DNA of 64,000 nt from Octopus vulgaris (taxonomy: Eukaryota), in assembly GCA_951406725.2 (NCBI GenBank), contig OX597817.1, forward strand, positions 131,564,001 to 131,628,000, given 5' to 3'. The notes under the pieces were generated by a model. That model had not been told where the DNA came from. It worked only from the letters and a program-made list of their open reading frames with translations, and did no database searches. A program made the translations under genes and the position numbers. Below, one piece after another: positions 28,916-63,927 of this stretch (position 1 is the first letter of the stretch; each line of letters opens with the position of its first letter).

Positions 28916-28987
28916 CTTCGGATTTTATAAGTATGCTAGGGCACTGGTTTAAATTAATATTAATAATATTAATTTCTATCCTAATTA

Positions 28988-29040
<53 letters not shown>

Positions 29041-29382: not shown

Positions 29383-29497
29383 TAGAGATTAACTATATAT
29401 TAAGAAAAATATACAGTTATGGTCGTGAGAATAAACTCTGATAGTCATCTACTTGAATTTCTGAAACAAGAAGCTTTAAGTAGTAAAACACGAATGC

Positions 29498-29542
<45 letters not shown>

Positions 29543-29815
29543 TGCACACATATGTACAAATGCACACACACATGCACTATCGCATGGGGGGGAATACCTG
29601 GAAAAGGCCGAGGAACTGTGCGACAATTAAAACACATTGGTTTTGGCTCTGATGCTAAACACGTTAAACTTCCACCGTCTCTTGTACACAGATGTTGTCC
29701 GCATCCGGGGATGGATTATGATGTAATACAAATATGCAGCAGTAATAAGAAGAAAGAACATTGGCATTACACGGTGCTCTTTAATTCCAATTCTTACCTA
29801 TGTTTCAGTATCCAT

Positions 29816-30049
29816 CACGGCAGCACATGATGTAAGACTATAGATACAACTAGCAAATGCAGCATATAGGGCCAACATGGCTCAAACTCATGTTCAGACA
29901 ATCAAGAAAGAAATACACGTTAGAGGTAAGAGGCAGTAAATTTGGTTACCTCTAACCTGTATTCATTTTTCGAATGTCTGACGATGTGTCTTCCTCACGT
30001 TGGCCTTATAACTGGTTGCATCTGTAGTGTGACGTCAAGTGTTGCCGTG
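29816..30049. mobile_element. Decayed foldback/MITE-like palindrome
   Basis: CACGGCAGCAC/GTGTTGCCGTG, CTATAGATACAACTAG/CTGGTTGCATCTGTAG and GTTAGAGGTAA/TTACCTCTAAC are nested symmetrically. Confidence 0.75.
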
Positions 30050-30580
30050 CCAAATACTCCGGCTAAATACTCTATCAGTCACGACAATGAGGGTCCCAGT
30101 TGATCTGGTCAACGGAACAGCTTGCTCGTGAAATTAACGTACAAGTGGCTGAGCACTCCACAGACATGTGTACCCTTAATGTAGTTCTCAGGGAGATTTA
30201 GTGAAGAAAAACATCTTGTTTTGTTCATCCTGTGGATCTTGAGTTCTTACACATTTATATTGTCCAAGATGTTGTAATCACTTGTAGTGTATAAATTAAG
30301 GACTTTTATTCTCTCTCCATGATATCAAGTTCAGCCATGCTCTGCTCCAGATATGATACGTGTCTTGTTACTGCAATAATAAGTGTATCACGGACGCTGG
30401 GTCTGCAAATGGTCCCCAGAGGGCAGCATATTTCCACAGCAGAACATATTTTTTCCTTGTGGTCCCACACAATATCTGGTCAAGTGTTTTAACTTGATGG
30501 CCGTTTAAATGATGATGATGATGATGATGATGATGCCGACGACGACGACGACGACGATGACGATGATGATGATGATGATG

Positions 30581-31730
30581 AATGCTCGGATGCAGTATCA
30601 GGCACTAGATCTCGTGGCTTCTGAACTTAACTGATTGGAAGTGTTATCATGTACATTGTTTTGTCTTGGTATAAAAGATGGCTACAGCAAATATTCTGCT
30701 CGATACCACAGATTTACTTGTCAGTTGTTTGACCTTAACCAGTTGAGCATGTCCCTTTGTGACTGACGATATGTGCCTCTCTGATCACGAGCAGAAGTAG
30801 TGGGGGAGCATCATAGCCATGTGTTGAGAGGAGTTCTTTGGGGTTTAGATAATTTACTTTTAGAAATATGTGTGTTTCGTTCAACATCCTTAAACAACCC
30901 ATATTTAGTTACTTAGGGACCTTTTGAGCGGGAAGGGCTACACAACCTGACGAAAATCTAACTGAGCCCCACCAGCAAGGCCAGAATAATCAGGAAAGTA
31001 TTAGATAGCTGAAGAAAAACGAATAGCATTGGTGCCGTGGTGTACAGGTACAAAGCCCGCTTCGCATGCAAAACTCCAGGAGCTCCAACAAAACCTGTTA
31101 TAAAGAAAAAATGAGAGAAGATAAAGGGATGTGGACAGAGTATGGTTTAGTCGGTGGTCAATATAGCATGCTAAAATATATACGAAGCCCAGTATACCCA
31201 TCATAATTATCCGTCTGATAAAGGGACACCAGGCACATGCATCACAACCATATGTGCGTGATATAGTGATCTCATATCAAGGTAAACTGTGCATGACCTT
31301 GCAGATAGAGCCCAGTTAAAATTTTCTTCAGGTCGAGCTGCGCATCCCCCTCCAAAGGTCCCCGAATAAGGTTTGTTTAGGTTGTTGAACGAAACACCCA
31401 TGTCTCTAGAAGTGAATTGTTTAGACCCCAAAGAATTTCTCTCAAAACTTGGTTGTGATACTCACCCCTACTTCTGCTCATAATCAGAGATGCACATATC
31501 ATCAGCCATCAAGGGATATGCTCAACTGGGTAAGGTCGAACAGATATGTGGTTTTGTGTAGAATATTTGCTGTAGGCCATCTTTTATACCAAGTCAAAAC
31601 ATGTACATGATAACACTTCCAATCAGTTAAGATCAGAAGCCATGAAAGCCACTGCCAGGTGCTCTGATACAGTACCAGTATATTTTACCCCAGTGTCACT
31701 TTGATGGCATGCACTGCTCCCTCACACTAT
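30581..31730. repeat. Two diverged inverted copies of an unclassified repeat (30581-30980 and about 31170-31660) plus a terminal remnant
   Basis: For example TTAACTGATTGGAAGTGTTATCATGTACAT near 30627 pairs with ATGTACATGATAACACTTCCAATCAGTTAA at 31601. Confidence 0.88.
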
Positions 31731-31744
31731 AATAATTATAATAA

Positions 31745-32520
31745 TACTTTGGAATATAATGCCCCGTAGAGTATCCACAGAAAGTTCGCCTCATAGGGAT
31801 AGCAAAAATTTATCAAGAAGTTTCTAGGTACTTAAAAGGCTACTGAAAATTTGTGGACACGTAAGGTTACAGGTAGTAACCCGCAACCCCCGTAAATCCT
31901 ACCAGGAATAAGACCGAACCTGAATCAAACTAAAATATCAATGATGGTGATGGTAATAATGATGATCCTGATCATGATCATGGATGATGATTGTAATGAT
32001 GGGAGAGTTGAGAATCAAGTTATTCAGCTCAATAGAGATGTTGCAGTAGCTAAAAAGATGGTGAAGGAAAGACGCATGAACCAGCTCCAAATAAAGCACA
32101 ATATTAGACAGTGAGGATACAGGTAGTTAATGAGGCGTTCAGGCAAATGATTAAAGTAGTGTTAGGTAATAGACCCCATCAGAGAATAAACCAATGCCAG
32201 TAGGACAGGCTGTTTAGATGAAAGGAAATGCTACCAACAGCTGAACATTGAGAATAAACATCAGAAGGACGATGTGCCAGATGCACGGAAGTAGTAAGAA
32301 AGATTAGTCAGACATCTTAAGCAAAGAAGTTCAACATAACATAAAGCAGACTAGCTTTGAAAATTTAAAGAGAAACGGATTGCGCAGCGAAAGAAGAATA
32401 TAAGAGTATTGCAGGTAAGAAAGTGGAAGAGATGATCAGAAAATACCAGCCTGAAAATTCCCCGGACCAAATGGTGTTCAGTGATTCTGGCTCAAATATA
32501 TTTCAGTTATTCACAATCAT
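31745..32520 (+). pseudogene. Decayed R4/Dong-like fragments (3' end at about 31745-31930; pre-RT region at about 32000-32520)
   Basis: KFPGPNGVQ*FWLK resembles WKxPGPDGVQGFWLK; VPDA and QRINQ remnants; a QKV.LIG.AKI terminal motif. Confidence 0.55.
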
Positions 32521-32974
32521 GGCTTTCGGAAGGCAAGATTAGCCTTGCCGTGTCTGCTGATAAGCAGACACGAGCTGAGGCTGTTCTGGCTGCAGGTGTC
32601 CCTGATCAGTGATCATGTGGAAGCTCATTTTGTAAGACATATTTCCACAAATCATTCTGAGTCAAGAAAAGAATAAGAATTAGCACTCAGCAATTAGAAT
32701 GTCACCAGACGCTCACAGATTGGAAATACAGTTAGTAGAAATCCTACTTTGACAATATATAGCGGGCTAGTGGAGAGGAAAAGCGATGACTTTGATAGGG
32801 AAACACTAAGTATCGACGTGGATGAACGGACTGGTTAGCCCCGGTGGACATTCGGGCCGAATGCTGAAGGCTTCTATACATAGCTTAGCCTGGTATTACT
32901 ACTAAGGGTCACTATTAGTTGGAGATGAACTGTACAAGCACAGAAGTAGTCAAATTAATGGGAAAAATCAGGTA

Positions 32975-33160
32975 AGACTCCTTTACCAACACACTCGTAC
33001 CTGCGCTTATACTCTTTCTGTGCTAGTTTTCTGTATACACTTGAGAGATAGTTAATGCTTTCGTCTTTTTTCCCACAGATTCTGCGTTTGCTCTCTAACT
33101 GAGTTTTGTCAAACTTTGCCTTTATCAGATTGGCGCTTCGGTTTCTTGTTTCAGTCAATA
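32975..33160 (-). pseudogene. R4/Dong-like zinc-knuckle region fragment
   Basis: DKTQLESKRRICGKKDESINYLSSVYRKLAQKEYKRRY parallels CR..G..ETINHIISG..LAKKEY at 37570-37660. Confidence 0.75.
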
Positions 33161-33202
33161 CCAGCTTTATTTACTTCTATCCTTACCAGTTTATGACAAG
33201 AA

Positions 33203-33376
33203 GTGGCCAGCTGGCAGGATCGTCACCACGACGGACAAAATGCTTAGCACCGTTTCTTCTGTTCTTTGCTAAGTTCCGAGTTCACTTTCCGAGGACGCCG
33301 ACTTTGCCGTCCATTATTTCGAGGTCGATAAAATTGTACCAATGGAGCACTGCAATCAATACAATCGACTTCACTC
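33203..33376 (+). mobile_element. Diverged SINE A
   Basis: AGCTGGCAG head and GACTTTGCC..GGTCGATAAAAT body. Confidence 0.7.
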
Positions 33377-33389
33377 AACATTGGAAACA

Positions 33390-33846
<457 letters not shown>

Positions 33847-33855
33847 ATTTATTAC

Positions 33856-33963
<108 letters not shown>

Positions 33964-35429
33964 CATTAAACTCATTAAAATATCGATGATTAAAGTAAAA
34001 TACATGTACAAAACAATTTTTTTACAAACTGATAAATAAGATAAAAAAAATTGTCGATTAATCTACAATTAATTTTTCACTGTTTTTTTCTTTCTTCATT
34101 TTCTTACTAATTAACCGAACATTGAAATGAAGGTAATCTCCCTCGATCTCTTATCTTTCATCATATTAATCTTGCTTTCGTTTTTCCCCTCTTTTTCCCT
34201 TTTCTCTCTCTATTACTTTCTCTCCAAAATCTCTCTCTCTCAATATCTGTCACCCTTTCTTTCTCATCCTACCTCACCGGCGTTTCCATTCAACAAAACT
34301 GTTACCCACCAAAACCACCACCACCACCACCACCACCATCGCCGCCACCGCCACCACCACTACCGCCGCCGCCACCACGGATGTAACTGCAAGATCATTA
34401 TCATCATCATTATCAGAAACAACAACACTGCCAACAATAGTATAGAAACTAATAGCCTACACCTACCTAACGATGGCGATGGCGGCTAAAACTGTTGGAA
34501 ATCGTAGCCGGTTCTATATGAAATTTCAACCCGCGTCCTAAAATAACGAGTTACAAATTGCATATTACTGGAATGTCTTTGGAAATAAGTCTGTTTGATC
34601 CTGGTTTCTTGGGGACTAAACTAACACCACCACCACCACATACCAAAACAACAACAACGTCTCGTTGAACCAAGCTGACCAGGTGGGTTAACAAGGATGT
34701 TTATAATTCTCACAACGCTATGAACCCCGCACCATTGCCTATATTACTGTTACTTTGGTATACAAACCCCAGGTCTACCATACCATTACCATTCAGCCAG
34801 TGGTATTCCTACCAGAACCGCCATTCCTACACCACTGCCTCAATACAATGGTATTTGCCAGCACGGTTTTGCCATCATTAATTCTATTCAAATACCAGAC
34901 ATACCGACTTCTCTCTTGAAGACAAGCAAATTATAACAGAGTGTGAGGCGTTTTTGAGGACATTTAATTATCTGTATATTATTTTCTTCAAACTAATGGA
35001 AAGATTTGTATTTCTTTCAGGTACCCCAGATAAATTGCTAACACAATGAATGAAAATACATACAATCATTGTCGAAATATATACAGAGCGCAGTGATTTA
35101 GATATTGTCAAGTTTCTAAATGATGAGAGATTTCTTTGCACACAAAGTTTGGATGGAATTAAAAACCTCCATCAATATATTTAAACCATATCACAAAAAT
35201 ACATGTTCTAAACACTCGGAGTCTATAAGAAAACCGCAACTCGTTAAATGGTTTTAAATCATTATCCCGGAAAATCAATGAGGGTCATCACTTCAGTGGT
35301 CGGAAATGACAACCTGAGCTGTGGTGCCCGATGCAACTCGTATGAACAAGTACTGAGTTGAAGAAAATTCGTGTCTGTGAAGACATGAAAATGGTTTGAT
35401 TTTTACCAAACTAGGTAAAAGCTCTCATA

Positions 35430-36085
35430 AACATGGCATGCTTTGGTTCTTCTATTGCATATAATGAATCTTTATTCAGCTGACTTGGTCAGTGAATCCT
35501 CTGCAACGGAGGACAATCGACGGCCAGATGAGCTGCCACTGATCGCACTATCCCAAAGTGTGTATGTATGTGACCGGGGACCACATGTGAACTTGTGTTC
35601 ACAATGAAACGTCGAATATGGACTCTGTACCTCAACAGCGAATGACGACCACGGCTACGGCACCCGCGCTACTACAACCAAATATCAGAACTGGTCAGTA
35701 TTCGTGAGAGACATGGTGAAATCGATAGTCAGAGCCGGTTCAAACCACCCCAGATGAATTCCGCTGCAAGTACAAGTAAATATTGGTAGCATGCTACTGG
35801 CAAAAGCCAAACGAATCTGTAATCTACATCACCGTTGTGATCACCGTTGCTCGATGTTTCTCGTCTGCGACTGATATATCTGTGCTTTTAGACTCAGTCC
35901 GTCCTGCTCCATGTTCGAGTGGTCAGCATCTTGACCGGTTCCCCCACTAGGGTTGCTTGCTACTCTTGTGAAGAGGGCGTCTGGACGTCCAGCAGGATTA
36001 AATTTAAGACCTGCCAAAGAGTAGATGAGCTCTATGTGGCCTAATGGCCATCCGACAGTGGATGGCAAACAGCAAACTACCATAA
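35430..36085. mobile_element. Decayed LINE 3' fragments (RTE-like), convergent
   Basis: Plus-strand piece ends GATGAATTCCGCTGCAAGTACAAGTAA (short-repeat tail); minus-strand piece has an LGHI motif. Confidence 0.4.
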
Positions 36086-36670
36086 TATTTCCGCCAAGAA
36101 AACATTCTGAGAAAGTCAGAACTAAGTAACGCTATAGTTCTATCCCACGGAAGAACTTGAGCTTATTCAGGTAGACTCTGTTTAGCATCAACAACGGCCA
36201 TAAGACGATTGTTCCAGTTAATTTGCTTTTGGTGATGTCTAACAGGAAAAATAAATGGTTATATGCAGATACATTTGATGTCTCCTTAGGGATGCACAAA
36301 AAAGTTTCCAGCATCTGGGATGGTTTGTATGTGTGGCGAGAAACAACAGTCGTGTGATGTCACCTAACGTCTTTCCGCAGGGTCTTAAAATAAATGGATA
36401 CGTTGAGGGCTGAAGAAATTTCATTTGATAAATTTTCGGATGAAGTACTTAGTAGAAGGTCATCAACATTCCAGCAAGGCTCAGCGTCTTCTCACAAAAC
36501 CCACGCAACACAAGAATTGATGGCAGACAATCTTTACGATCATGTAGCACCAAACTTGTGGCTTCGAAATTTGTCAACTTTAAATCCCATACAGTTCTAT
36601 ATTTAAGAGATGAGGAATTATGTACATTATTTACATTTGACAGATATTCGTCCTCATCTTGTTTGTTGTT

Positions 36671-36718
36671 AACATAACGTTTCGGCTGATATATACCCTC
36701 CAGCCTTCATCAGGTGTC
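36671..36718 (-). ncRNA. Minimal hammerhead ribozyme motif within a module at 36594-36775
   Basis: GACAC-CUGAUGA-A-GGCUG..CAGCC-GAAA-CG-UU-AUGUU; palindromic AACGUU; one stem I mismatch. Confidence 0.7.
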
Positions 36719-36786
36719 TTGGGGAAATTTCAAACCTGGGTTCCCATTCCTAAGGTATTTGTCGATATTTTTATTATTATCAATAT

Positions 36787-39180
<2,394 letters not shown>

Positions 39181-39698
39181 TCGTCATTTGCGTGAGTGTG
39201 TGTCCTGTAAATTTCACTTAGTTTTTACAACATTGATGTGTATGTGTAGTACTATGGATATCAAAATGTATATATGATTGTGTAGACATTCGAGAGTATG
39301 CGTAATTACTCAATTTATGTACTCACTATTTTTTTTATTTTGGTCAGTTTCTATTTTATAATTTGTAAACTTTCCGGTGTTGATATCGCGCGTGTGTTTC
39401 GCACATGTTTAACTGGGACACCGTGCGTAGGAGAAACTACTTTGTATGGCAGTCAAATTTCGTTTTTTTTCTCAGTATCTTCGTTAAAAGGCCGCTTCCT
39501 TCAGGTCTTCCTCAGGTTCCTTTATCTAATTCCATCGATGTTATTAGATTAGATTTGTTTTTGAATGGAGAACCCGGTTTAGTGCATCCATGTTGTTCTT
39601 ATTACATCCATGTTGTTGTTGTTGTTTTTATAACAATAATTATTTTTTATAATAATAATTATTTTTATAATAATAATGATTATTATTATTATTATTCA

Positions 39699-39768
39699 CA
39701 TGGCGTAGCGGTTAAGAGCGCGGGCTACTAACTCCAGGATTCCGAGTTCGATTCCAGGCAGTGACCTA
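39699..39768 (+). mobile_element. Isolated tRNA-like SINE head between ATT/AAT repeats
   Basis: A box TGGCGTAGCGG and B box GAGTTCGATTCC; no intact acceptor stem. Confidence 0.65.
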
Positions 39769-39964
39769 AATAATAACAATACCAAATATCTTATTAATGT
39801 TTTAATGCAATCCCTAATAATATTTATTTGTAAAAAAATAACGAGAACTTCTGCCCCAAATAGCGGCGTCCCTTATTGAAACAATATTGTGAGGACCTCG
39901 ATTAGTTTCCCTTTGAACAACGCTCCAAACGTAATAATCCATGGGATTAAAATTTGACAAATTT

Positions 39965-40083
39965 TTTTTAAAAATCGAATTGTTATGAGGCTTCACCCGA
40001 AGAACATATAAATTAGAAGCGTCCACCCGAGTCATATAAAAATCAAAAAAGTACATAGGTAAGAAAATGGTTGGGAACCACTG
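39965..40083. mobile_element. hAT-type MITE, one end only
   Basis: Ends GGTTGGGAACCACTG (reverse complement CAGTGGTTCCCAACC). Confidence 0.6.
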
Positions 40084-40793
40084 GCTTAGATGATGTCTAA
40101 AATGAATAAGGACCATTTAGTGCGAACATGTCATTAGTATTGGTCCCGCATCGAAACAGTTGCCGAATTTTGAGGCGAATTCATAAATAACCTCACGAGA
40201 AAGCTTATCGAAAAGAATCGCATTGATTTTATTAAAATGTATTCGGTTTTTCTGTAGATTAAAGTTCTTTTATCAAATAACCAAACGTGTCCTCAAATAC
40301 CTCTCGCACCTTGTATAGTCTATCCCTCACACATCCACTTCACCGCCCCTACAATTATTTAGACCGTTATTGCTACTCCCATCAGTACCACTACTCAAGA
40401 CCAACACAACACCATGCCACCGTCACCATCACCATCGCCATCACCAACATCATCAACACTATATTTCAATAAATTCTCACGCTGGCACATTTACTAGCAC
40501 CACCGTCTTCACCACTACCACCACCACTGCCAATATCAGCAGCAGCAGCACGACGACGACCACCACAACCACCAGCACCAGCACCAGCACCACCACAAGC
40601 ACCATCGCCACAGGCACCATCACCACCACCACTACTACCACCACCACCACCACCAACACCACTACCACCATCACTACCACCATCACCACTACAAGCACCA
40701 CCACCACCACCACCACCATAGCAGTCACTAGCACCATCACCATCACCATTAAAACCCCCACCATGACAGCTGCTCTCACCACTGTAGTAGTAA

Positions 40794-40846
<53 letters not shown>

Positions 40847-42678
40847 ATGCCGTGACCCAGTCCTCACTAAACCTTAGCGCAACCCTTCCCTAATCGATAT
40901 CTTGTGGCAAGAGTGGGGAATCGAAACTAATTAGTTGATTCCAGTCGATATTGGTGTATCTTATTGGAATATTAAATAGATTAACGACACCCGTGGCAGC
41001 AGCAGTAGCAGCAGCAGCAGCAGTAGCAGCAGCAGCAGCAGCTGACTAAAGATGCTGAAAACTTCGTATAGACAGAGGTGTGGGTAGAAGAAGGGGGAGA
41101 GAAAGGAGCAAGAATTGGAAGAAGAAAAGACAAAGAAAGAAAGAAGAGGAGGAAATAGGAGAAGGGGAGGGAGCAGGACGAAAAGAAGAAGAAGAACGGT
41201 AACGGTGTATTATGAAAATATTGTGTGAAAGGGAGAATAAGAATTGAATTTGTATTAAAGAACGTTGGCTGATTGTAGAGGTCAGAAACTGGAAATGTTT
41301 GAAACAATAAGGTGGCCGACACGGCTAAAGGCATCAGTTGATGTTAGATACAAGAAAAGACACAATCGAAATTGGTATTGGGAATGTGATGGACGGTGAT
41401 AGAGGTAGAAATGGCGATATGAGGGTCAGCCGTATGTTTAGCATTGACGGGGTAAAAAGGTCAACTTGTTTTCGGTGGCCACCATCGTAATTTAAATTAG
41501 CAACGGAGGACTTTTGCCTTGCTTTTCTTCACGAGTGCTTTGACATAGGGAGACATCATTTGAGGTTGGTCAGGTTTTTATTCTATTGTGTCTATTTTGC
41601 CACAGAATGAATATAAAGGAAGACGGACCTCTGAATGGATATAAAAGCATGGTATATCACTAACTGTGCAGATGCCTGGCCCAATGGTTAGGAAGTTGCT
41701 CGCATGATTGGGGTTTCCAGGACCGGACGGTGTGTTATATTATTGAGCAAAATACTTGGTTCTATGATACTCCAGACAACCTCGCGGTAAATAACCGATC
41801 TTGCAGCTGATTGGCGTCCCGTTCGTGGGCCGTGCTGTCAATTAAACGCTGGTTACCGGTTTCTAAGAGTCCCAGGACTATAGACAATAATGTCCAGAGG
41901 ACTTACCATACTTTTATATCACCAGCTGTTTTATTGGAAAAAAAGTATTTTGTGCAGATTAGCGAATTCCTACTTAATTTTATGTCATTCACAGAGTGCA
42001 TAGAAGCAGCCGGTGAACCGAAAGGCAGTGAGTCGTGAAGAAATAGATATTTCGAGTCAGTGATCTTTGCTCCGTTTCTATAGTGGATAACTTAAAGAAG
42101 GAATAAAAAAAAACTATGTCGCTACAACCAAGCTTTATATATATGTGTGTGTGTGTGTGAATGGAGAAATCAGTCGGTTCAGTGGAGCAGGATCCACTTT
42201 AGTAGCGGTTAAAAGGAAAGATTGATCGGATAGCACGTCTATCGATTAGAGATTGCAGAGTGCATGGGAGAGTGACTTCGTGCCGATAGCTGGATTAGCC
42301 CTTTAGGGTCGAAGCTGTTTGTAATGTGTAGCTGTAAGAAACGTTTCAAATCATGGTGCAATACGTTTCACTTCTGGCTCTCCTTTCATATTTGCAATTT
42401 TTGCGAGATGCGATACATTCTGGCTCGCAAGTGGAAGGCCAGACTTTGTGATGTAGTCTTTATAATGTGGAATGTGAAATCATAAGAAGAGAACCTCAAT
42501 GACGTTCTGGTTGAGTGTTGTTCATGTTTGTTTCATGCGGGTTGGTATAACATTGCTTTCATGGTATATGTAGTGATTGTGTATTTCCATTGTTGAAGGA
42601 GACAAGATTAACATGGCGGCTCCGTTAGAGAATGTTTTCAGAATTTCTCTTCATGAAGTCTTTACGGATTTGACGTAA

Positions 42679-42940
42679 GGCGCGGGCGTGGTTGTGTGGT
42701 AAGAAGCTCCCTTCTGAACCGCATGGTTCCGGGTTCAGTCTCCCTGTGTGGCACCTTGGGAAAGTTTTGGTGTGATTACGGTCCCGTAACATAGCGGTTT
42801 GTCAAATGAGACTGATGGAATATGTAGCAACCTTAAAAATGAAAACAAATACGTACAGGGGTTGATTCATTTCGCTAAAAATTCTTCATGGTGGTGCCCC
42901 AGCATGGGGGCACCTTAATGAGTGAAACAAGTAAAAGATG
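42679..42940 (+). mobile_element. SINE B, internally deleted
   Basis: Family B head and tail, central part missing. Confidence 0.82.
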
Positions 42941-43389
42941 AATAACTGTTCATCTTTTATATATATATATAATGTTCACATAATAATATGTATGCATGTA
43001 TGTTCACATAATATACATATATATGTATCTGTACACATACATACGTATGCATATGCACACACATACACATTCATGTAAAGTTAGGTTTAACACATTCATG
43101 TGCATTCGTATGTAATAAGATGTGTCACTGCACGAATAGTCCAGGAGAAAACCATTCTCCTCTTCGAATTATTTAATAACGTATATGTGCGTAACTTTAT
43201 TAGATCTTCGGTCACTGCTTTCTTAGGGCTCTCCGCTTATTTGTGTGTGTGTTTAACTTGTAACCTTTACTTGTTTCTGTCATCAGCTTCGGCAATATTG
43301 AATGACTGACTGAATGAATCAACACCCATACTCATTTTTAAAATTTCAACCCTGACACTTATTCCTTCAGTTTCTTTTAAGGAAATTTA

Positions 43390-43620
43390 AGGTGACGTAA
43401 AGACACCAACAATAGTTGTCAAGCGGTTGTTGAGGACACATGCGCGCGTGCGTGCAGCACACAGACATATACAAAAGATTCTTTAAGTTTCCGTCTATCA
43501 AATCCACTCACAAGGCTTTGGTTGCCACCCCACAAACTACAATAGAAAACGCTTGCCGAAACTGCCACGCAGTGAAACTGAACACAGAACCATGCAGTTG
43601 GGTAGCAAATGTTTTACGAC
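43390..43620 (-). mobile_element. Diverged SINE B
   Basis: TTTCCGTCTATCAAATCCACTCACAAGGCTTTGG is the reverse complement of the family B body. Confidence 0.75.
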
Positions 43621-43630
43621 TATATATTTA

Positions 43631-43770
43631 TATATAAGCATGTGTATGTGTGCGTGCGTGTGAGACTGCGTGTGTGTGCGCATATATGCATATATATGTA
43701 TATATAAGCATGTGTATGTGTGCGTGCGTGTGAGACTGCGTGTGTGTGCGCATATATGCATATATATGTA
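43631..43770. repeat. Perfect 70-bp tandem duplication
   Basis: 43631-43700 is identical to 43701-43770. Confidence 0.95.
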
Positions 43771-43845
43771 TATATATGCACATATATATATGTGAGTGTG
43801 TGTGTGGCATATATATATATATGTATATATATATATAGATATAGG

Positions 43846-43979
<134 letters not shown>

Positions 43980-43982
43980 ACG

Positions 43983-44051
<69 letters not shown>

Positions 44052-45403
44052 AATTAAGGACTGAACACGAAAAGTGGACAGTCAACATGCTAGATATAGA
44101 CGTCAAATCGTCATTCACCACAAAAGATTATGTTCTCAGATCAAACTCAACATATATATATATATATATATATGGCAAGAAAGAAAATGGAAAAAAGATT
44201 TTCTATTTTGCTGTAAATATTAAGAGTAAACAACTTTTTACTCCCGCCCATGTATGACACTTGATTTCATTTTTGTGTAAATTAGACGACAGCTTATACA
44301 CTTCACCCTGTATAAAAATATACACACGCGCGCGCGCACGCACACACACAAACACATACATATATATATATACATACATAGATACAGTCACACACATGGG
44401 AATACCACTTTTCTGGAAAATGAAAGAATGTTAAAAACAATGAGAGAATATGAAAATGGTTTGTTTGAGACTAGATACAATACCTTATATATAACGGATG
44501 AAAAATGAGAAGTGGTGGCGTTTATGATTTTCCAGAGGAACAAACCAATCTAAATGATGTGAAGCCCCCTCAAATGGAAATGAAATCCATCAAAGGCACC
44601 ATATTATTTAATGTTAACTTTGAAAGGCAAAAACAATATCTTAAGATCAGAAGAAATAAAGAATGAAAGAATACGAGAATGAAGGAATATAAGAATGAAG
44701 GAATCAATTGAAAAGAAAACGCTTAGTAGAAGAAGGAATAAAACTAAAATAAAGAAAAGAATACTGTTTGGACGAATGAATGAGAAGAAGTAGAAGAAAA
44801 AGAATTAATGGCCAAACGCAACGAAAAAATAATAAAAAACAATGTTTAAAAACACAAAAAAGAAAATATATATTGTTTTTCATGAAGTCTATAACTGGAT
44901 TCCTTTCTTCAGGGACCATTTAATAATTCTTTCTTTTGAAACAACAAGATTAAAAACCCGAAGAGAAGTAGATATATATAAAAATATAGAGAAAGAACAC
45001 AGCTGAAAACATGGCCGCCAACATAAACAAGTTTAATAGAAAGGAAAAACACATAACTTATATCCACCACCAGCACCACTACCACTATCACCGCCGACGC
45101 CACCAGCATCACCACAACAATCACCACAACCACGAAGACGACAAACATGACCACGACTACAACCACAACGACGACCACGACCACCACCGCCACCACCGCC
45201 ACCGCCGCTGTCTCTATTAGAACCTTCGAACGTTTCGCCTCTATAGAAGCAGTTTTGATCTGATTAAAATAGCTCAATGTTTTCGCCATTCAATTTGTTG
45301 TTTCTCGTGGTAACATTCCATACGTGTTGTGTGTGGCATACATGTATATATATATATATATATATAGATATACACACACATCACACATACATACATACAT
45401 ACA

Positions 45404-45490
<87 letters not shown>

Positions 45491-45643
45491 AGAAGTGTCA
45501 GGGTGTAAGAGCCGTTACATTGTGTTTTATTGTAGGGATGTTAGGGTGTTAGAGTGTAAGGGGAGTTACATTGATTAATTCTCCCATACTCTAGCTGGCT
45601 TCTTCGATCAGTTGGGCTTGCGTCCTCCATTTTACTTTCTTAA

Positions 45644-45708
<65 letters not shown>

Positions 45709-45803
45709 TATATACATGTATATATATAGATGCACACACATATATATACACACAAGTATATATATACATGCATATATATATATGTATATATATTTATGTA
45801 TAT

Positions 45804-45849
<46 letters not shown>

Positions 45850-46070
45850 GTATATATATATACATATTTATACATATACATTATATTTGCATATACATAT
45901 ATATGTACGTGTGTATGTATGTATATATATCTATATCTATATCGATATATATATATATATATGCATTTATTTACAAGTATACACATACGCACACGCACAC
46001 ATATTTATATTTGTACATATATACTTTTATGTATATATATATATATTATATTCATATACATATACGTATG

Positions 46071-46136
<66 letters not shown>

Positions 46137-46225
46137 CATACATATACATATATATATATATATATACATACATACATGCATATATATATATATAATATAT
46201 ATGTATACATCAATCAAACCATCCT

Positions 46226-46327
<102 letters not shown>

Positions 46328-46602
46328 TATATATATATATGTATGTATGTATGAATGTATGTATATATTAATTTATATATTTATTGAGAACGCAAAACAA
46401 AATACACATGTATATATACTCTGCATTACGTACTCATTTGTGTTGCCCCCGTTTATAAAAACTAACTGACACCGTCTCCCCCTGTACTCTTCTCTCTTCT
46501 CCCTATTCTATCACCCCTTCTCTTTCTCCCACTGCACTTTATCTCTCTTGCTCTCTTTACGTGTGTGTATATATATATATATATAAATATAAATATATAT
46601 TA

Positions 46603-46638
<36 letters not shown>

Positions 46639-47330
46639 TGTATGTATGTATGTATGTGTATGTGTGTGTGTATGTGTGTGCGTGTGTGTGTGTGCCTAAA
46701 TCTAAAAAGCAGCAAATAGCTCTTAAGAAATGTGTAAAACAATACATTGCTCATAACATATATTCAATGATCAAGCTATAATGGACGAACTAAATAATCA
46801 TCGTAACTACCAACGCATTCTCTCCATTGCTACACACTTGTCACTGCGTATATGACTTCTTGTTTTCATAAGTCTATAATACAAATTTACCAACAAGCTG
46901 AATCTTTGGACAAATATCTGAGATATGTTGCCATGTCTCGGCCAAAGATTGGCCCAGGCCATATCTAAAGCACCACCTGATAGGATTTGTTAAGTCATTC
47001 TAAAAACAAAGTTTTCTGGTATCATACTATTCAAGTAAGGAGTTATTGACTGAGATGTAAACAGGTATGCAATAACCACATTGATTTTTCCGGCTTCATA
47101 ATCCATAACGTTTTGTATTTGATGAATTGCGACGTCCTTACAGTGTTCGAACGCTTAAAATGTTTTTATTTTATTTTTCTCATTTACAGTTGATACATTC
47201 TTGTTAGAGGCTTCCACTCCTATCTAGGCCACTGGTTCCCAGAGTGGGCCGTATTGCCCCCATCCCCCTGGAGGTGGTGGAAAGTTTCAAGGGGGCGTTG
47301 GAGAAAAGTGGAGTGATAATGGAGTAGCAA

Positions 47331-53197: not shown

Positions 53198-53209
53198 ATA
53201 TATATATAT

Positions 53210-53800
53210 CTAATGTAGGATAAAATTTTTCGAAAAAAATTCTGTCAATGGCTAGCATATTAAAAAATACCTTTAAGGGTTAAATTTATAAACAATTTAT
53301 AAGTAAGGGCAAAAGAAAAAAATTCTAATGCCAAAATATGCCGAAAATTGACACAACGTCAATAACCATGTAATTTATCACTACAAGCTCGCGTTTCGAA
53401 GAAAGCCGGCAGAAATTTCTAAAAAAATCCCGTTATTACCATATCAGACCCGATTTCAGAGTTAGTTCATATAGAAACTCTCTATATTGGATATATTTGG
53501 GGTACTTAATTGTGCTCATGACTTAGTGTTCGCTTCTTCCATGGGTATAAGTAAGTATTTCACTTATTTCTTTGCCGCATTTATTACTGATGAAGGGAAG
53601 GTTCTTATGAACTAACTCTTAAATCCGGTCCGATATGGTAATAACGGTTTTTTTAGAAATTTCTGCCGGCTTTCTTCGAAACGCGTGCTTCTAGTGATAA
53701 ATTACATAGTTATTGACGTTATGCCTATTTTCGGTATATTCTGGCATTAGAAATTTTTTCTTTTGCTCTTACTTATAAATTGCTTATATATAAATTTATA
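53210..53800. mobile_element. Foldback element with arms of about 200 bp and a hammerhead-like core
   Basis: Arms 53281-53478 and 53601-53798; CTGATGA at 53587, GAAACGCG at 53678. Confidence 0.8.
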
Positions 53801-54178: not shown

Positions 54179-55853
54179 TACTAGAGTTAGAGATTGGAAT
54201 AACCGTCTAAGGTATAAAAGTACATATGCAAGCATATTACGCACATTTAATACAGTCAATGACAAAGATAAACATGAGTTTACAAGGAATCAAATTTAAA
54301 GTAAATAGAAAATGGTGAAATTTCTCCATTTTTTGTTTACACACACACACACACACACATATACATATATATATACATTATAAATATAGATATACATATA
54401 GAGACATTAAAAAACATACATGCCTATATATATATATGTGCGTGAATGTGTTTGCGTGTGTGGAGAGAGAAAGACAGAGAGAGAGAGATGAAGAGAGAGA
54501 GAGATGAAGAGAGAGAGAGATGAAGAGAGAGAGAGAGGGAGAGCGTGAGCAATTGTGAGGTTTTGAGTTGTACATTAGGATGTTACAAAGGTAGAGAATA
54601 AAATTGTTGCGGTTTCCCGAGGTATTTGAGGTGAGTAGAAGTTATTGGGTTACTTTTCAGTGGAACGATGGTTTATAATTGAATAATTGACGGGGTTCGA
54701 GGTTCAATCGTTATTACAAAGAAAATAAATCATTTTCATGGTCGTATGTACCCTCCATATACTCTCCCTTTCTATTGTTTTTTGTAATACTTTGGAGAAT
54801 TTTCCCCGACAGAAAGGTTACAAAATGTTTAATTATAACATAATCAGATGTGTTTGTTTCTGTGGCTCAATATATACCTTGAAATTAATAAAGTTCTTTG
54901 CACTTCATTTTGTCGTCTAACAAAGCTCAATAAACCTTTGGCGTTCTCTTGTAAAATTAAGAATTGAATCCTTGATTCGCGTAATGACTCTTAAAATGAA
55001 ACGTACCGATTTATGAGCTTGCGTCTTCCAAACTTTAATTGAAGTAAATCATATTAGCTGTTGTAAATTTCTGGTTTGCTTTGGCATTTAGGGTCAATAG
55101 GAGAGTGATCAACAATTTTATCATGAGATAGCTGGTATATCAGTAATTGTACTTATCGATTGTGGCTAACTAATCTCAGACACCTGGCTGCAGCATGCAA
55201 TAACGTTTCGGATACACGAAAAACGAATATGACTCACCTGAGTGTTTTTAAACGAAATTTAGAAGTATTTAACTCTACTATAAATTACATTAAGTAAGAA
55301 GGTGGATTAAACCAGATAACATACCTTTTATGGTTGAATTCGTTGTTGTTCTTTCCCCCCTTAATATTCCTGGATATAAATCTATTTTCTTATGTGAAAT
55401 CGTTAATCTCAAATCTCTGTTTACAGTAACTGGTCGCACATACTATCATAAAGCTTCGTCAAAAGATAATCCTATAAATACATGTCTAAGTTATAAGAGG
55501 GCAGTTAGCTTATGTGGGGTACCATACAAAATGTAATAAATATGGTAGACCATACAACAGCAACATCGATTGCATCTGGACATCCAAACTAAGATTACAT
55601 CTATCCACATGCTTTCCCCACTTCAAAACACCCCGAGAGATTTAATCATCAAGATATTACGATCAGCATAAAATACACAGATAGGATATTGGTTATTAGA
55701 TTATTAAAGAGAAGAACCTTATTAATAAATTAATTACTTCTGTCAGCAAAATTCCGCTGCGTTAATTGACTAATGTAACGCTTCTGATCTGTGACATGAG
55801 TCCTTTCAGCTCATACCTATGCAGATCAGAGATGAGCTGAGTCTTAATTATTC

Positions 55854-55890
55854 TTCTTTGATAAAGGTTTTTAAAGCCGAAATATTAGAA
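55854..55890 (+). ncRNA. Decayed minimal hammerhead-like motif
   Basis: UUCU-UUGAUAA-A-GGUUU-UU-AAAGCC-GAAA-UA-UU-AGAA; two core changes. Confidence 0.35.
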
Positions 55891-55987
55891 TATTAAGTAA
55901 AAGTATGAACAGGTCTCCAGGTTTTGCTCTTATTTTCATTCTTTTAATTCAAACTAACGTTATAATGGATTTCCAAATCAGTCATTT

Positions 55988-56370
55988 ATCTTTTACTTGT
56001 TACAGTCATTGAACTTCGGCTATGCTGTCGTGCCGCCATAAAGGGTACCACAGTCGAACAAACTGACTCCCATTTCTTATGTATTTTTAGGTCTCGTACA
56101 TATTCTATCGATATTATTGCCGAACCGTTGATTTATAGGGGCGTAAACAAACCAGCACCGACTGTCAAGTCGCGTGGGGAACAAACACCAACACAAGGTC
56201 ACCACAAAGACAGAGACGCACGCACACATATACACACTGGCAGGCACGTGCACGCACACACACACACACATATGTATTTGATGAGGGTCCTTTACAGTTT
56301 GTATCTATGAAATGAACTCACAAATCATGGGTCGATTCGGAACTATGGTAAAAAAACCTCCTCAAGTTGT
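55988..56370 (-). mobile_element. Diverged SINE B
   Basis: TCTTTTACTTGTTACAGTCATTG tail and CGTAAACAAACCAGCACCG body. Confidence 0.7.
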
Positions 56371-56425
56371 ATGTATGTGTGTGTTTGTGCACTCGCGTGT
56401 GCATGTGCATATATATTCATATATA

Positions 56426-56479
<54 letters not shown>

Positions 56480-56485
<6 letters not shown>

Positions 56486-57054
56486 TAATAAGGGTAGAAA
56501 TTGATATTAATAAATTAAAACCAATGGCTTAGCAAATTTTAAAAAATCGAAGATTAAAAATTGTGTTACATACAAAATTTAGAGAACTGACCACTAAAGT
56601 GGACAGCCTATATGCTAAACATAAACGTCAAATTGCCATTACCACGAAGAATGTGTTGTCAAGAAAAATCTCAGCAAAAAATCAATGTAAAACTAAGTGA
56701 AGGCATTTGAAAGATACACATAAATTTAATTTGCAGAACTTTATACATGCTGGATTTCAATTGAGCGTTCTGTATCTAGTTCTGGAAATTGTGTTTTGTA
56801 AGCGACAGACTATGCTGATGATCTTGCAGATATTTGCGCGTTCATATACGTAAATATTAACAAGTGAAACCAATAGTACATAAGTAATAGTTTTTGATTT
56901 CGTATATTTTCATTTGTCTTTCTAATTTTTACATTTTGTTTTTTTTTTGCTGAGATTTTTCTTGGGAACATATTCTTCGTGGTAATGGCGATTTGACGTC
57001 TATGTTTAGCATATAGGCTGTCCACTTTAGTGGTCAGTCCTCTAAATTTTGTAT
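56480..57054. mobile_element. (TA)n-flanked foldback element with arms of about 125 bp
   Basis: Arms 56570-56692 and 56927-57054; homologous pieces at 44050-44150 and 28912-28995. Confidence 0.85.
56811..56882 (+). ncRNA. Type I hammerhead ribozyme candidate with intact core
   Basis: UAUG-CUGAUGA-U-CUUG..AUAUUUGCG/CGUAAAUAU..CAAG-U-GAAA-C-CAAUA-G-UA-CAUA. Confidence 0.72.
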
Positions 57055-57287
57055 ATATATATATATATTTTTTTTTTTCAGAATGAGACAAAAAACCAAG
57101 GCAGTGAAAATTTTAGAACATTTATAAATAGAAGGTTTAACCGCTGTTTCCAGTTGAAGCATCAAGTCAGTCCTGTATATGAATGTTTGTATGCATATAC
57201 GTATGAATGTACGTATGTATATATGTATGTATATATACACGCACATACATATATGCATAATCTATATAAATATAACTAAATGTACTT

Positions 57288-57556
<269 letters not shown>

Positions 57557-57933
57557 ACGTTGTTGCATCGGCTCGTAGGTTAATCGCCTTTTTCTATTGT
57601 TTATTGGAAAAGTTTTGCTTTAAATTTTCGCAAACGGGGTGTGTAAGGCACCCAACTTTCGTCTGGGTGTGTTTTCCGAGAGGGAATTTGCCCCTAGGGG
57701 CAATTTCAACCCTATTTTAATATCAAAATTTTTGCTTTCTCGATTTTTACATATGTCGGGAAAGCGTATCGTCTGGCGTGTAAGCGTATTGTCTGCCTAA
57801 CGTGTTTACAGTTTTTGCTTTCGAAGTTTGTGAAGCGCCCAACTTTCGTTTGGGTATTTTTAAGGGTGGAATTGGCTCCTAGGGGCAGTTTCATCACCAT
57901 TTCAATATCGAATTTTATTTCACGATATTAAAA

Positions 57934-58287
57934 ATGTCGAGAAATTTGATTGTAGAGCAGTGGTCGACAGTATTCGTCGACGAAGACTTTCCCAGTCTAG
58001 GAATGATGGAGGGAAGAAGAAAAGACGACGAATCGTTCGATCGCATACACTCGAAAACAAGCGCTGAAAAAGAAATTGCTGTCAATACAATAAATAATAT
58101 TTCGATGGTCGTTGACAGCCCTGCCATCGCCATCGCCACCACCACCACCACCTCCACCACCACCACCACCACCACCATCACCACCACCAGAACTATCACA
58201 TCTACCACCTCCGCTGCCACAACAACCATTAACAACAACAACAACAACAACAACAATAATAATAATAATAACAATAATAACAATAAT

Positions 58288-58349
<62 letters not shown>

Positions 58350-60130
58350 CAATGACAACAAGAATAACAACAACAACATCAATGATATAGCTATAAATAT
58401 GCCTGCTATTTCGCAGGATTTGAATATCTCACCTATTACTGGTGATGATAATAATATTAATATTAAGAAGGCAACATCCACTGTTCCTGGAAATGCCAAT
58501 ACACACATTACCACCACCACTACACTATCAACTAACACTAATTTTGCTGCGGCAACCACCAACATCCACAACGACAACAACAGTACAAAGAAAATTTCTA
58601 TTAATTTCGCAGACATGCTCAAGCAAAAACCCCCCAGAAATTGTGCATTTCACAAATGAAGAGTTACTCGAGACCCGGTCACTTTTCACAACATCCGGAC
58701 AAAACCTAATACTGCACACACCACAACACGTTAGAGAGGATGTGGAAAAGAGAACAATTGTATTTAAAATTATTAGGAAAACCCCCAAAACAGTTGAACA
58801 GATAACTAAAACAAAAATTACAAAAAATGTGCCAAAACAACAATGAAAACAAAACAATACATAAACTGGGGTCCCCAATTTAATACTGTGCAGGTCCGCT
58901 TCCATAATCAGGAAGAGGCAAAACAGCGCTCTACGCAAACACTACAGAACGATGAACTCGTCATGGTCCCATACTACATGGGACAGAGAGTAAGCAAAAT
59001 CAAAATAGAGAATATCCCACCCGAAATTCAACCAAAGTGGATCACATCGGCGATATGTTTTCATTTGAAAACAATAGGCATAATAGAAATCGCCAGTTTT
59101 CACAATGAAAACTGGACCGGCAAATCGATTGAAATCACGATCCAAATGGATCAAGATTCTATCGAAAAATTGCTCAATGTGATCCAACTCGAAAATGGAC
59201 AAAGCCTGTATGTGGTGGTGGAGGGGAAAACCGCGTTGTTACCTCTGCGGCAGCCCAGACCACTTAATAGCAAAGTGCGTTTTAGCACATAAAAACAACA
59301 AGAACAATTGCAATCAAAATACAAAACAAATAGAAGACAACCTTTGCTATCAGCACCACCAAACCCACAACTGATGCAAGAAATATACAGAAAAATGGAA
59401 CAACGTCAAGAACAACACCAAACCAGCAAACAAAACCCAAGAACATCACCAAGAAGAGAAACAACACCATCACAGTTACCTCCAACACCGCAACCAGCTA
59501 GAGAAACTACACCACCACCATCAACAGATAAACCAACACCAACACCAAGAACAACAAACAAGAAAACAAATACCACTGAAGAAAAGACAAATTCTGACCC
59601 TAATTCCCCAACAACAACAACACACACACACTACACACCACAACAATTTCTACAAACACACATATAGAAGCAAATGCTCTGCCTTTATCCCCTTCTGATT
59701 CGTCAGACTTTTCGTCTAACGACGAAATTTCGACAGAATGGCAAATAGCCACAGGGGGTGAAAGGAAAAGATAAAAAAACGACCAAACAAGCAAATGCAA
59801 GTAAAGCAGGGAGATATATAACCCCTGACAGCCCCTTACACAATCAAACCAACAACGACACCGCAACAACACACACTGCTAACAGCACTAGACATAGAAA
59901 ATACAAAACTAATGAACTACATCACATCTCACACATGAAGATGTCTTTAAACTGAACAACCATCCACGCACTACACCACCGACACACATAAAACTAGTAC
60001 ACATCACACAAACGCAGCACCACACACTCAAAACCCCCTTTCCAAATGTGGTCGGGGGGTTCCAAAATACTTGTCGAAGAATCTTTTCAAAAACCTCCTC
60101 CAAGATATTTCAAAAGAGTAGAAAACTACT
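57934..60130 (+). pseudogene. LINE ORF1 (frameshifted) with CCHC zinc knuckle
   Basis: Consecutive ORFs at 57934, 58442, 58843 and 59308; VVEG..RCYLCGSPDHLIAKC near 59215-59277; 3' boundary uncertain. Confidence 0.75.
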
Positions 60131-60208
60131 AAAACTTTCGAAAGGAGTAACATTCCCTCTCGTCTCTTTCGCTGTTGTGTGTGAAACACAAATTTTCGAC
60201 CATGAATT

Positions 60209-62087
60209 ATGCTTAAATTAGGTTGTGTGAATGTACGTGGCTTGGCGTCGGCTTGGAAGCAAGTTTATCTTCTAAATAACATCAAGTCACTGAACGTTGA
60301 TATAGAAGCTATCAGTGAAACCAGACTCAGTAACCCGTGGGCCCTCGCATCCATGTTTGGCGGACAATTCGACATTTATTTTTCTCCCTGTCTGCCAAAC
60401 ATGGGTGGTGGTGGTGGTACCGCGGTGCTTTTTCGGAAGAGTCTAAACGTAAAAGTAAGATCAATATTCCTAGACCCGGAGGGTAGGCTGGTGGTCGATG
60501 GCAGAAATGGGTGTGCTTTCCGCCTGATGGCAGTGTATGCACCGTCCTTAATGGGCCGGGCGGATTACTTCAGACGTCTAGAGGTTTTCCTGGGAACGTC
60601 TCGATCTTTACTGTTAGTAGGGGACTGGAACGCTACCTTGGACACGCATCTAGACTATGTGGGAATGGATAGGAATAGAAGCGGATGTAAGTGCCTCAAA
60701 GACCTGCTCAGACGTTTCCATTTGTCTGACAGGTTCCGACTCGACCATCCGAATGTGCCAACGTGGACTTGGACAAACCGCGTCGGACTGTAGATATCGT
60801 ATCTAGATAGAGTTCTATGTTGGACAGAAGATAGAGATAGTGTAGGATGTCCACAATTTAAAATAGTCAGATCACAAATTTTTGACGTGTACGCTCGACT
60901 TAGATAAGACACATAGGCAGGGGCCCGGTTACTAGAAACAGAACATGTCGCTCTTATCGCGGCAGGTTTATAGGAACCGGATTAGTGAGTTAATTAAGAG
61001 GGCATTAACAGGAGCCATCGTTAACAACCGCTGGTGGCTTGCCCTGAAAATGGCAATTAAATCGGAATCGATTAGGTTTGGCAAAGAATTAGCGATAGAT
61101 CGAAATAGAACAGAGGGAAACTTAGTTAAGAAACTAAAAGAGGCTCTTACAACTGGCAGTGCAACCAACGTACTGGCTGCGAGGATGACCCTAGACCAAC
61201 ACCTTAACGCCAAACGCGAGGGTTGCGTCGTCAGAGCTAAAATGCGTACCTTAAGGAACGAAGGGATCGAAGCTGCGCGAGAAGCCCAGGTAGTGGAGGC
61301 GCAACGTGGCAAAAAAGCCACCATTCGGTCTCTAATAGATCAACAGGGATGCAATTTACTCGAACCCGAAAGATGTGTGAGGCCTTTCAACAGCACTTTG
61401 CTCGACTGTTTGGTGCGAGTGGTGGGTCGGAACGCGGGATGGACTTCAGAGCCTACCTGACCGGCCTGCCGCGGCTGTCGGCAAGAGAAGCAGAGTGTTG
61501 TGAGGGTCTCATCACAGCTGCTGAAGTACGAGATGTGAAAGCGGGCTGCGCGAGGGATAAGTCGCTTGATTAGATGGTCTACCCTACGAGCTGTATTGTC
61601 AAATGCCAGACTTGTTTGGCAACCTCTTGGCATCCGTCTACTGCAACAGGCAACAAAACGGGAGAATCCCCGGTTTCGTGAGCCGAGGTGCAGTGACGTT
61701 GCTGAAGAAAGACCCAAACAAGGGGAATTTTATAGATAATTCTAGGCCCATCACTCTGCTCAACGAAGATTTTAAAATTTTGGCCAAAGTAATAGTCGAG
61801 AGGTTGGCGCTTGTCATCGATAAACTCATCGATAAGGCGCAAACATGCGCCGTGCCGGGGAGAACCATCCATGACAACCTCAATCGGATGTGCTACATCG
61901 TGGACAGGGTAGTTAAGGATTCTGGCATGGGTGGGGCGCTGATCAATTTGGATCAATCTAAAGCTTTCGATAGGGTCGACCATCAATACTTGGCGGCCGT
62001 CCTCAGGGCGGCTGGCTTTGGTCCCATCTTCCGCGGTTGAATCGCTGCCTTGTATAGCGACATCTGATCGGTAATTTGGGTGAACAC
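60209..62087 (+). pseudogene. LINE ORF2: APE endonuclease and N-terminal half of reverse transcriptase
   Basis: NVRG, SETR, AVYAP, VGDWN, SYLDRV; RPITLLNEDFKILAK, PGRTIHDN, LDQSKAFDRVDH; stops and frameshifts; breaks off before QG and YADD. Confidence 0.92.
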
Positions 62088-63395: not shown

Positions 63396-63927
63396 TGGTG
63401 GCTGCCCCCTCATTAACAAGTATGGCCATTGCATGTGGCTTAATCAATGTTGTTATCGTGCAATGCCTGAGCAAGAAGATTTTTTTAAAGTGAGGAAAGG
63501 CTGTGCACTGAGTCAATCCCACTCACTAAGCAACATCAGCTATAATCCGAAAAGAAGAACAAGTCAACATCATCGGCAACTACTGAGCCGCAGGTTATAT
63601 GTCGGAGTTATCCCAGTTACCTGAGTTACCTTCTCCTAGAAGGATACCCTAACAAAGGCTAGGAGTCCTTCACTCTTAATGGTTTAACCGCACGATCGGG
63701 TATTCAGTCCAATTATTTCTATGTCCCCGCGCATGATACAGCCTTAAGACATTTATTGGAATGCCGTTGACTCTCAAGAGTTCCTCCGCCCTTTGACGGG
63801 TTTTGTTTTTCATCCCGCAGAGTGTCCAATAAACACCCTCCTCACCAAGCAAGCTTGGTGGGGTTGCCGACGACCCGACCATGCAACAGGTTACATGTTA
63901 CGAGTAGCACTCGAAAGTGCCCTGACA
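63396..63927 (-). mobile_element. Second copy of the 12018-12572 element
   Basis: Same termini, small indels, TA-rich flanks. Confidence 0.9.

Follow-up and report, generated by a model that had tools for sequence, protein, structure and literature searches.

A hammerhead-bearing foldback repeat in a TA tract of Octopus vulgaris, probably formed from two Penelope-like element 3' ends

Hammerhead-bearing Penelope-like elements and the 56-kb locus

Penelope-like elements (PLEs) generally insert together with an inverted, 5'-truncated copy and with a tail of 30–40 bp on one side only, as set out by Craig et al. (2021, PMC8557442). For the Hydra clade the target recorded there is (TA)n in 26 of 27 families, and Penelope-13_HM is among those with an inverted 5'-truncated copy. 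By our own tally of File S2 of that paper, helix III of the hammerhead ribozyme is 9 nt long in 19 of 25 Hydra-clade motifs, and the core reads CUGANGA-U...U-GAA, with a U·U at the base of stem II, in 14 of 25 families; none of the six Chlamys/PLE-X families carries U·U. Eleven of the 14 come from one species, Hydra magnipapillata, and two of the rows are identical. One further entry, Hydra-1_Obim, has the helix III acca-a-tggt and is listed as 'no pLTR'.

PLE hammerheads have been characterised as dimer-type and slow (Cervera and de la Pena 2014, PMC4209133). A PLE protein cleaves both strands of AT-rich DNA and extends them, uses two start sites on its RNA which bound the tail, and assists the hammerhead, the cleavage of which is dispensable in vitro (Frangieh et al. 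2024, PMC11167929). Beyond PLEs, a U10.1–U11.1 mismatch occurs naturally and is the best tolerated of mismatches according to Perreault et al. (2011, PMC3088659), and the axolotl retrozyme hammerhead HHR_Amex2, which carries U·U, was 22% cleaved in 1 h as a monomer and performed better as a dimer (Cervera and de la Pena 2020, PMC7229834).

The locus described here lies within a stretch of 64,000 nucleotides of the Octopus vulgaris genome (the window), AT-rich and microsatellite-laden animal DNA with LINE and mariner remnants. On reading the sequence, positions 56481–57054 form a 574-base hairpin-shaped repeat with a TA tract on either side. Its parts, labelled according to the interpretation favoured below, are:

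56429–56479: left (TA)n, imperfect from 56409, the presumed insertion target
56481–56566, minus strand: 86-bp one-sided 3' extension (the 'tail') of the inverted copy, consisting of family sequence
56567–56696, minus strand: left arm, an inverted and more strongly 5'-truncated 3'-end copy that ends short of the hammerhead
56695–57054, plus strand: 5'-truncated element 3' end, with body, hammerhead and 171 nt to the terminus
56810–56883, plus strand: type I hammerhead motif
56943–57054, plus strand: right arm, the 3'-terminal 112 bp, ending without a tail
57052–57068: right (TA)n

The succession of (TA)n, end module, arm, spacer, inverted arm and (TA)n given in a preliminary description of this DNA is present in full. 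The arms (56567–56681 and 56943–57057) are 94% complementary over 115 nt without gaps, with seven mismatches; when gaps are allowed, pairing extends to about 56696, and from there a complementarity of about 65% reaches as far as about 56725, so that the arm length of 125 bp given earlier is a fair one. The arm–spacer junction is placed, by inference, near the AAG at 56694–56696. Owing to its arms the whole element folds at z = −20.8, a value equalled by none of 100 shuffles. Within the window, (TA)n flanks all three fragments of the family, namely the 56-kb element itself, a lone arm and a lone tail:

44041–44152, minus strand: arm-only fragment, diverged to about 80%, from this family or a sister family; it has a TA tract on each side and shares the end site of the right arm
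28915–28993, plus strand: diverged tail-only fragment between two TA tracts, identical to the tail at 65 of 88 positions

The earlier claims of insertion into a TA tract and of PLE-style inverted ends are thereby borne out by the TA flanks, the inverted truncated arm and the one-sided tail. (TA)n insertion is not diagnostic for the Hydra clade, because Naiads typically insert likewise. No ORF is seen in the unit, and this copy is non-coding; an antisense open frame through the right arm was considered as a gene and set aside, having no protein relatives in a comparison that covered longer proteins only and is weak evidence. No direct repeat of the unit occurs within 55500–58000, and there is thus no pseudo-LTR tandem copy at the locus.

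We consider it probable, at about 75%, that the 56-kb stretch is a head-to-head insertion of two 5'-truncated PLE 3' ends into a TA tract. With rather less assurance, the parent is likely to have been a Hydra-type PLE. The features which match the published Hydra clade are the U·U, the 9-nt palindromic helix III and the TA target. As in the entries for Penelope-4_HM, Hydra-1_Ajap, Hydra-1_Crog and Hydra-1_Obim, a sense-strand type I hammerhead lies near the 3' end; the likeness to clade entries extends to the form CUGANGA-U...U-GAA, a 9-nt near-palindromic helix III with a stem I of 4–5 bp, the (TA)n target and the inverted 5'-truncated copy. The traits by which a Hydra-clade hammerhead is recognised here (proximity to the 3' end, often U·U, 9-nt helix III) come from our tally rather than from a definition by the original authors, and all are found at 56 kb. 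There are also differences: at 42 nt the stem II insert exceeds every one listed for the clade, and the tail of 86 bp compares with the published 30–40 bp. Hydra-1_Obim has a helix III 9-mer identical to that of the majority of the present family, ACCAAUGGU, but its stems I and II and its 3' end are, by eye, unlike those of the 56-kb element and it is without U·U; judged by these sequences, the 56-kb element is not Hydra-1_Obim itself. Motif searches of the supplement of Craig et al. brought up no matching family among the matches listed.

The pseudo-LTR hammerheads of Cervera and de la Pena likewise have a long helix II, a helix I of 4–5 bp and a palindromic helix III, and include scattered lone motifs from truncated PLEs and inverted pairs; their consensus differs in having an extra base after A9 and then G10.1–C11.1, where the 56-kb motif has U·U followed by C-G. 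In Anolis Poseidon (PAc; Frangieh et al. 2024) there are again two alternative 3' ends with a tail between them, an AT-rich target, and a hammerhead 100–300 nt from the end. The PAc hammerhead overlaps the ORF start and its tail is about 30–40 nt, whereas no ORF start is recognised at 56 kb. HHR_Amex2 resembles the 56-kb motif in being a non-coding type I hammerhead with U·U at the base of helix II; retrozymes, however, are tandem repeats of 170–400 nt that make circular RNA, as against a single inverted, TA-anchored insertion.

An ORF for a telomerase-like RT and a GIY-YIG endonuclease is absent from the 56-kb copy, as is to be expected of a 5'-truncated end. The Hydra clade is marked in its RT and endonuclease by RWK, DKT and a CxCX5C linker, without CCHH. 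Since no RT or GIY-YIG sequence is linked to the family in the sequences examined, the identification as a PLE rests on non-coding features; the stretch would work like a Hydra-type PLE end, and we do not file it as a proven member. A search confined to papers found none that describes the family.

The hammerhead motif and its variants among relatives

The complete core, stem I UAUG/CAUA and long stem II announced in the preliminary description were all found in the spacer, where it had placed them. The core consists of CUGAUGA (56815–56821), GAAA (56866–56869) and GUA (56876–56878), with U56822/U56865 as the U·U at the base of stem II. Four pairs make up stem I (56811–14/56879–82), and stem II is a 42-nt insert (56823–56864) with CUUG/CAAG plus 13 further positions. 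Helix III (56869–56877) is ACCAAUAGU in this copy, read as C-CAAUA-G and then U, with A17 at 56878. The motif agrees throughout with the type I core consensus (C3-U4-G5-A6-N7-G8-A9, G12-A13-A14, A15.1-U16.1, H17), and cleavage is predicted 3' of A56878. The earlier proposal of a PLE-type hammerhead that would cut at this point is in keeping with the features of the published Hydra-clade motifs.

In the window the core pattern with U·U was found once, as against an expected 0.03, and 3 of 100 shuffles reach that number. A relaxed hammerhead scan found five loci against a mean of 0.71 in 200 shuffles; for a stricter subset, given as stem I of at least 4 bp and also as the U·U type, there were two loci against a shuffle mean of 0.015. 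Folded in isolation, the motif gave z = −1.55, and its active fold sits 6 kcal/mol over the minimum; as a monomer, pair probabilities are 0.54–1.0 in stem II and at most 0.04 in stems I and III. The Rfam comparison that had been suggested as a check returned no hammerhead: there were three weak, unrelated matches, and no hammerhead model was among the 150 of 222 rows listed. Probably the long stem II and 2-bp stem III place the motif outside the Rfam hammerhead models.

Parts of the stretch were found in twenty public runs under five organism labels. No run has half of it, the best having 0.38 of its words, and the exact 56-kb copy is in none. From four of 24 listed runs, contigs placed at 80% likeness numbered 3,408, 2,683, 249 and 73, which indicates an abundant repeat family, though depth is not copy number. 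Three near-fixed differences in these four runs are changes private to the 56-kb copy. In relatives, 56839 C>T (91–100% of depth) restores a U-A pair of stem II, 56883 A>G (90–100%) supplies a fifth pair of stem I, and 56875 A>G (93%, 97%, 85% and 38% in the respective runs) turns helix III into ACCAAUGGU. This family-majority form is a near-palindrome and is predicted to pair between two ribozymes. The remaining variants, at 56832, 56840, 56842 and 56871, are wobble-compatible, in a loop, or pair-restoring. All seven motif variants among the 40 of 155 rows listed thus keep or restore pairing, and none falls in the core or at either U; minor variants of the core may exist among the other 115 rows. 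On a simple model, zero disruptive changes among seven has P = 0.007–0.026 and three restoring changes out of three has P of about 0.0003–0.0005, values which flatter the case because the pair list was drawn up after the variant table had been seen.

One contig from run X14 (record 23) carries a perfect helix III palindrome, ACUAAUUAGU, as a compensatory form, its phase being judged from matching depths. Calculated self-dimer energies of helix III are −9.0 kcal/mol for this record, −8.2 for the majority, −3.6 for the wobble form and +1.4 for the 56-kb copy. The record maps to 56805–56933, is 826 nt long, and has a depth of 46, compared with about 5 for the other contigs of this run, which is guessed to be RNA; after 56933 it departs from the family sequence, and it might represent a younger subfamily. 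A separate observation, made by eye, concerns 56884–56955 (plus strand), where relatives read AG|GUAAU after stem I and then a U-rich tract ending in AG, an arrangement resembling a short intron. Introns are known in the 5' UTR of PLEs.

The motif had been called apparently intact. This holds for the core; in the stems and helix III, this copy departs from the family majority at three pairing positions, each time to the detriment of pairing. Having lost the helix III palindrome as well as a pair in stem I and another in stem II, the 56-kb copy would cut poorly, and its ribozyme is probably inactive. It is likely a decayed passenger, with a single ribozyme and a broken palindrome.

The U·U had been regarded as unusual and as a possible impairment. 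It is not unusual, because with 14 of 25 families it is the commonest form among Hydra-clade hammerheads, and the suggestion of impairment is not supported, HHR_Amex2 being able to self-cleave with U·U. U·U variants may already have been treated by Lunse et al. (2017). As far as the listed variants go, U·U is the family state, since none of the 40 of 155 rows listed shows a variant at either U.

Origin of the foldback arrangement

Depth at 56692/56694 was 0 in three runs and 329 in X3, about 1% of that in the adjoining bins, which stand at 29,000–47,000 in X1 and X3. Upstream of 56695 the body normally continues into another common sequence (13 and 11 loose ends in two runs). Six of the 15 joints listed, out of 61, connect the body with the left arm or the tail; no two of the six coincide in position, and each is found in one contig per run. 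The tail–arm junction is bridged by two of 32 listed pieces (records 1 and 25), whose 17 and 27 differences mark them as separate copies. In X3, 15 loose ends at 56570 enter TA-type repeats, as the right arm does. Together the joints and loose ends show a family that ends at either of two 3' sites, 86 nt from each other, and that varies both in its 5' ends and in its inverted junctions. A pattern of shared 3' ends with 5' truncation is also seen in the end site of the 44-kb fragment and in the loose ends at 56570 and 56695. Because both halves are abundant and the arm–spacer junction is nearly absent from relatives, the foldback looks to be mostly an insertion by-product, and the family of foldback units envisaged in the preliminary description is not upheld.

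Two X3 contigs do span the 56-kb arm–spacer junction, record 27 at a depth of 213 and record 28 ungapped at 87%, and on a few occasions the complete unit may therefore have been copied. They would fit, as would a unit with no ORF, a dedicated non-autonomous foldback subfamily in which the unit arose once and was then transcribed and re-inserted by a PLE. Against this stand the near-empty junction, the many different places at which the listed junctions lie and the loose ends that run into other sequence; moreover, recurrent joining at the self-complementary stretch would likewise yield repeated junctions. We therefore regard such a subfamily as improbable, and only slightly less doubtful is a combined picture of an undescribed, very abundant Hydra-type PLE family (with lengthened stem II and 86-nt tail) that includes a minor foldback subfamily moving as a unit. 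Were the subfamily real, its RNA would form a 250-bp hairpin whose loop carries a dimer-type ribozyme with U·U, and the imperfectly self-complementary sequence on either side of that ribozyme would act as an inherent hotspot at which ends join head to head.

The TA that bounds both arms (56570–56571, and 57052 onwards), the mariner remnants in the window and the occurrence of the end module alone at 28.9 kb would suit a TA-targeting, Tc1/mariner-like MITE with 112-bp TIRs that had picked up part of a PLE hammerhead and inserted next to a small repeat of separate origin, the end module. Yet the tail–arm junction recurs in other copies (records 1 and 25), which makes tail and arm one sequence, and the arm–spacer junction is rare although MITE copies should share it. 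The arm stands alone at 44 kb, an element at 53 kb has the same asymmetry with a different arm length, the tail is one-sided, and symmetric TIRs common to most copies were not found; such a MITE is very unlikely. Equally hard to credit is a non-LTR retrozyme monomer spreading via circular RNA, akin to the retrozyme-like reading offered earlier. It would agree with the type I hammerhead, the non-coding character, the low GC and the U·U shared with HHR_Amex2, and solo monomers derived from PLE pLTRs are described in a preprint (bioRxiv 10.64898/2026.07.22.740005). The locus has one hammerhead only and no tandem repeat of the unit, and because there is no tandem array we do not class it as a retrozyme; no head-to-tail joint is among the 15 listed of 61, and a defined 3' end that lies in TA and has a tail is a feature of PLEs. 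Least plausible is that an AT-rich repeat resembles a hammerhead by chance, a reading to which the missing Rfam match, the modest z score and the energetic cost of the active fold would lend themselves, and against which stand chance rates of 0.015–0.03 per window, variants in relatives that respect the structure, and a feature-by-feature match to published Hydra hammerheads.

If the stretch is indeed a pair of PLE 3' ends joined head to head, the following course may be proposed. The parent RT/GIY-YIG protein would nick both strands of (TA)n, and two cDNAs would begin on one RNA, one at an outer start site, giving the 86-nt tail, and one at an inner site, giving the tail-less end, in the way that two start sites define the tail of Anolis Poseidon. 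Both cDNAs would stop early and then join head to head, aided perhaps by the imperfect self-complementarity of 56695–56725 with 56905–56940 and by the AAG overlap near 56695. In the parent, the hammerhead would act on tandem transcripts by way of an intermolecular helix III of 8 of 9 bp, perhaps with assistance from protein, the cut falling after the base equivalent to A56878. In intact relatives the hammerhead is predicted to cut only as a dimer.

No new class of element is called for, because both the layout and the U·U core have already been published for PLEs. Additions to the published record are a stem II of this length, a tail of 86 bp and, possibly, a minor subfamily of foldback units. 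As a marker, U·U together with a palindromic helix III of 9 nt seems to point out Hydra-type PLE ends which go unrecognised by Rfam. Thousands of natural variants in one family offer material for covariation and cleavage tests of dimer function and for work on RT start sites, for which the decayed 56-kb copy would be a poorer object than younger copies.

Other hammerheads and repeats

The second U·U motif, noted earlier at 11512, is present, though with only one pair in stem I:

11506–11601, plus strand: U·U hammerhead of another family, with the perfect palindrome ACGAUCGU as helix III and a 66-nt stem II insert

Its stem I is broken, it has no inverted arm, and about 380 nt of AT-rich sequence separate it from a TA tract at about 11980. 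An unrelated family at 53205–53800 (plus strand) follows the same plan as the 56-kb element, with (TA)n, a one-sided extension of about 75 bp and inverted arms (53281–53502 and 53575–53798; 194/227 identical, 85%), and has a CUGAUGA core at 53587. Its left arm extends into the hammerhead in antisense, and the ribozyme is probably inactive because position 17, after an ACGCGU palindrome, is G. A similarity between the 53-kb and 56-kb tails was considered and rejected as not significant (score 36 against a shuffle maximum of 41).

At 36713 (minus strand) there is a motif of the type described by Cervera and de la Pena, with an extra A after A9, G10.1–C11.1 and a palindromic ACGU helix III, and no stem I by the scan; it directly follows an (AAT)n/(AAG)n tract that trails an RT-bearing LINE remnant (37359–39183, minus strand). 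An inverted repeat at 30601–30983 and 31294–31656 (385 bp at 78%, 311 bp apart), in which no convincing hammerhead was found, could represent either a MITE or a pair of SINE-like copies in inverted orientation. Elsewhere in the window lie a broken LINE (58810–62040, plus strand) with endonuclease (PF03372, 60209–60790) and RT (PF00078, 61573–62037) domains, a mariner transposase remnant (9993–10840, minus strand; PF01359, PF17906), and a 554-bp repeat pair, 89% alike and in opposite orientation (12019–12571 and 63397–63926), the first of which begins at the end of a TA tract.

A motif scan of about half each of a metagenome and a viral contig collection gave 241 matches at 238 loci. In these loci the 56-kb element had no BLAST match, and its arm motif had no exact match in either collection. 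Six matches, at five loci, pass the stem filters, none of them from viral contigs; all six have U·U, a 9-nt near-palindrome, a stem I of 4–5 pairs and a stem II of 5–11 pairs:

L006:24–180, L019, L060:1–310, L108:293–400 and L022:456–520: U·U hammerheads with 9-nt near-palindromic helix III, on animal-like metagenome contigs

They belong to two or three families with different stem sequences, none BLAST-similar to the 56-kb element, and no PLE ORF is evident on the short contigs that carry them. L060 is a head-to-head pair with arms of 138 nt at 99%. By eye, L006, L019 and L060 have at their 3' ends a word of 13 letters that is also present at the end of Hydra-2_Amil.
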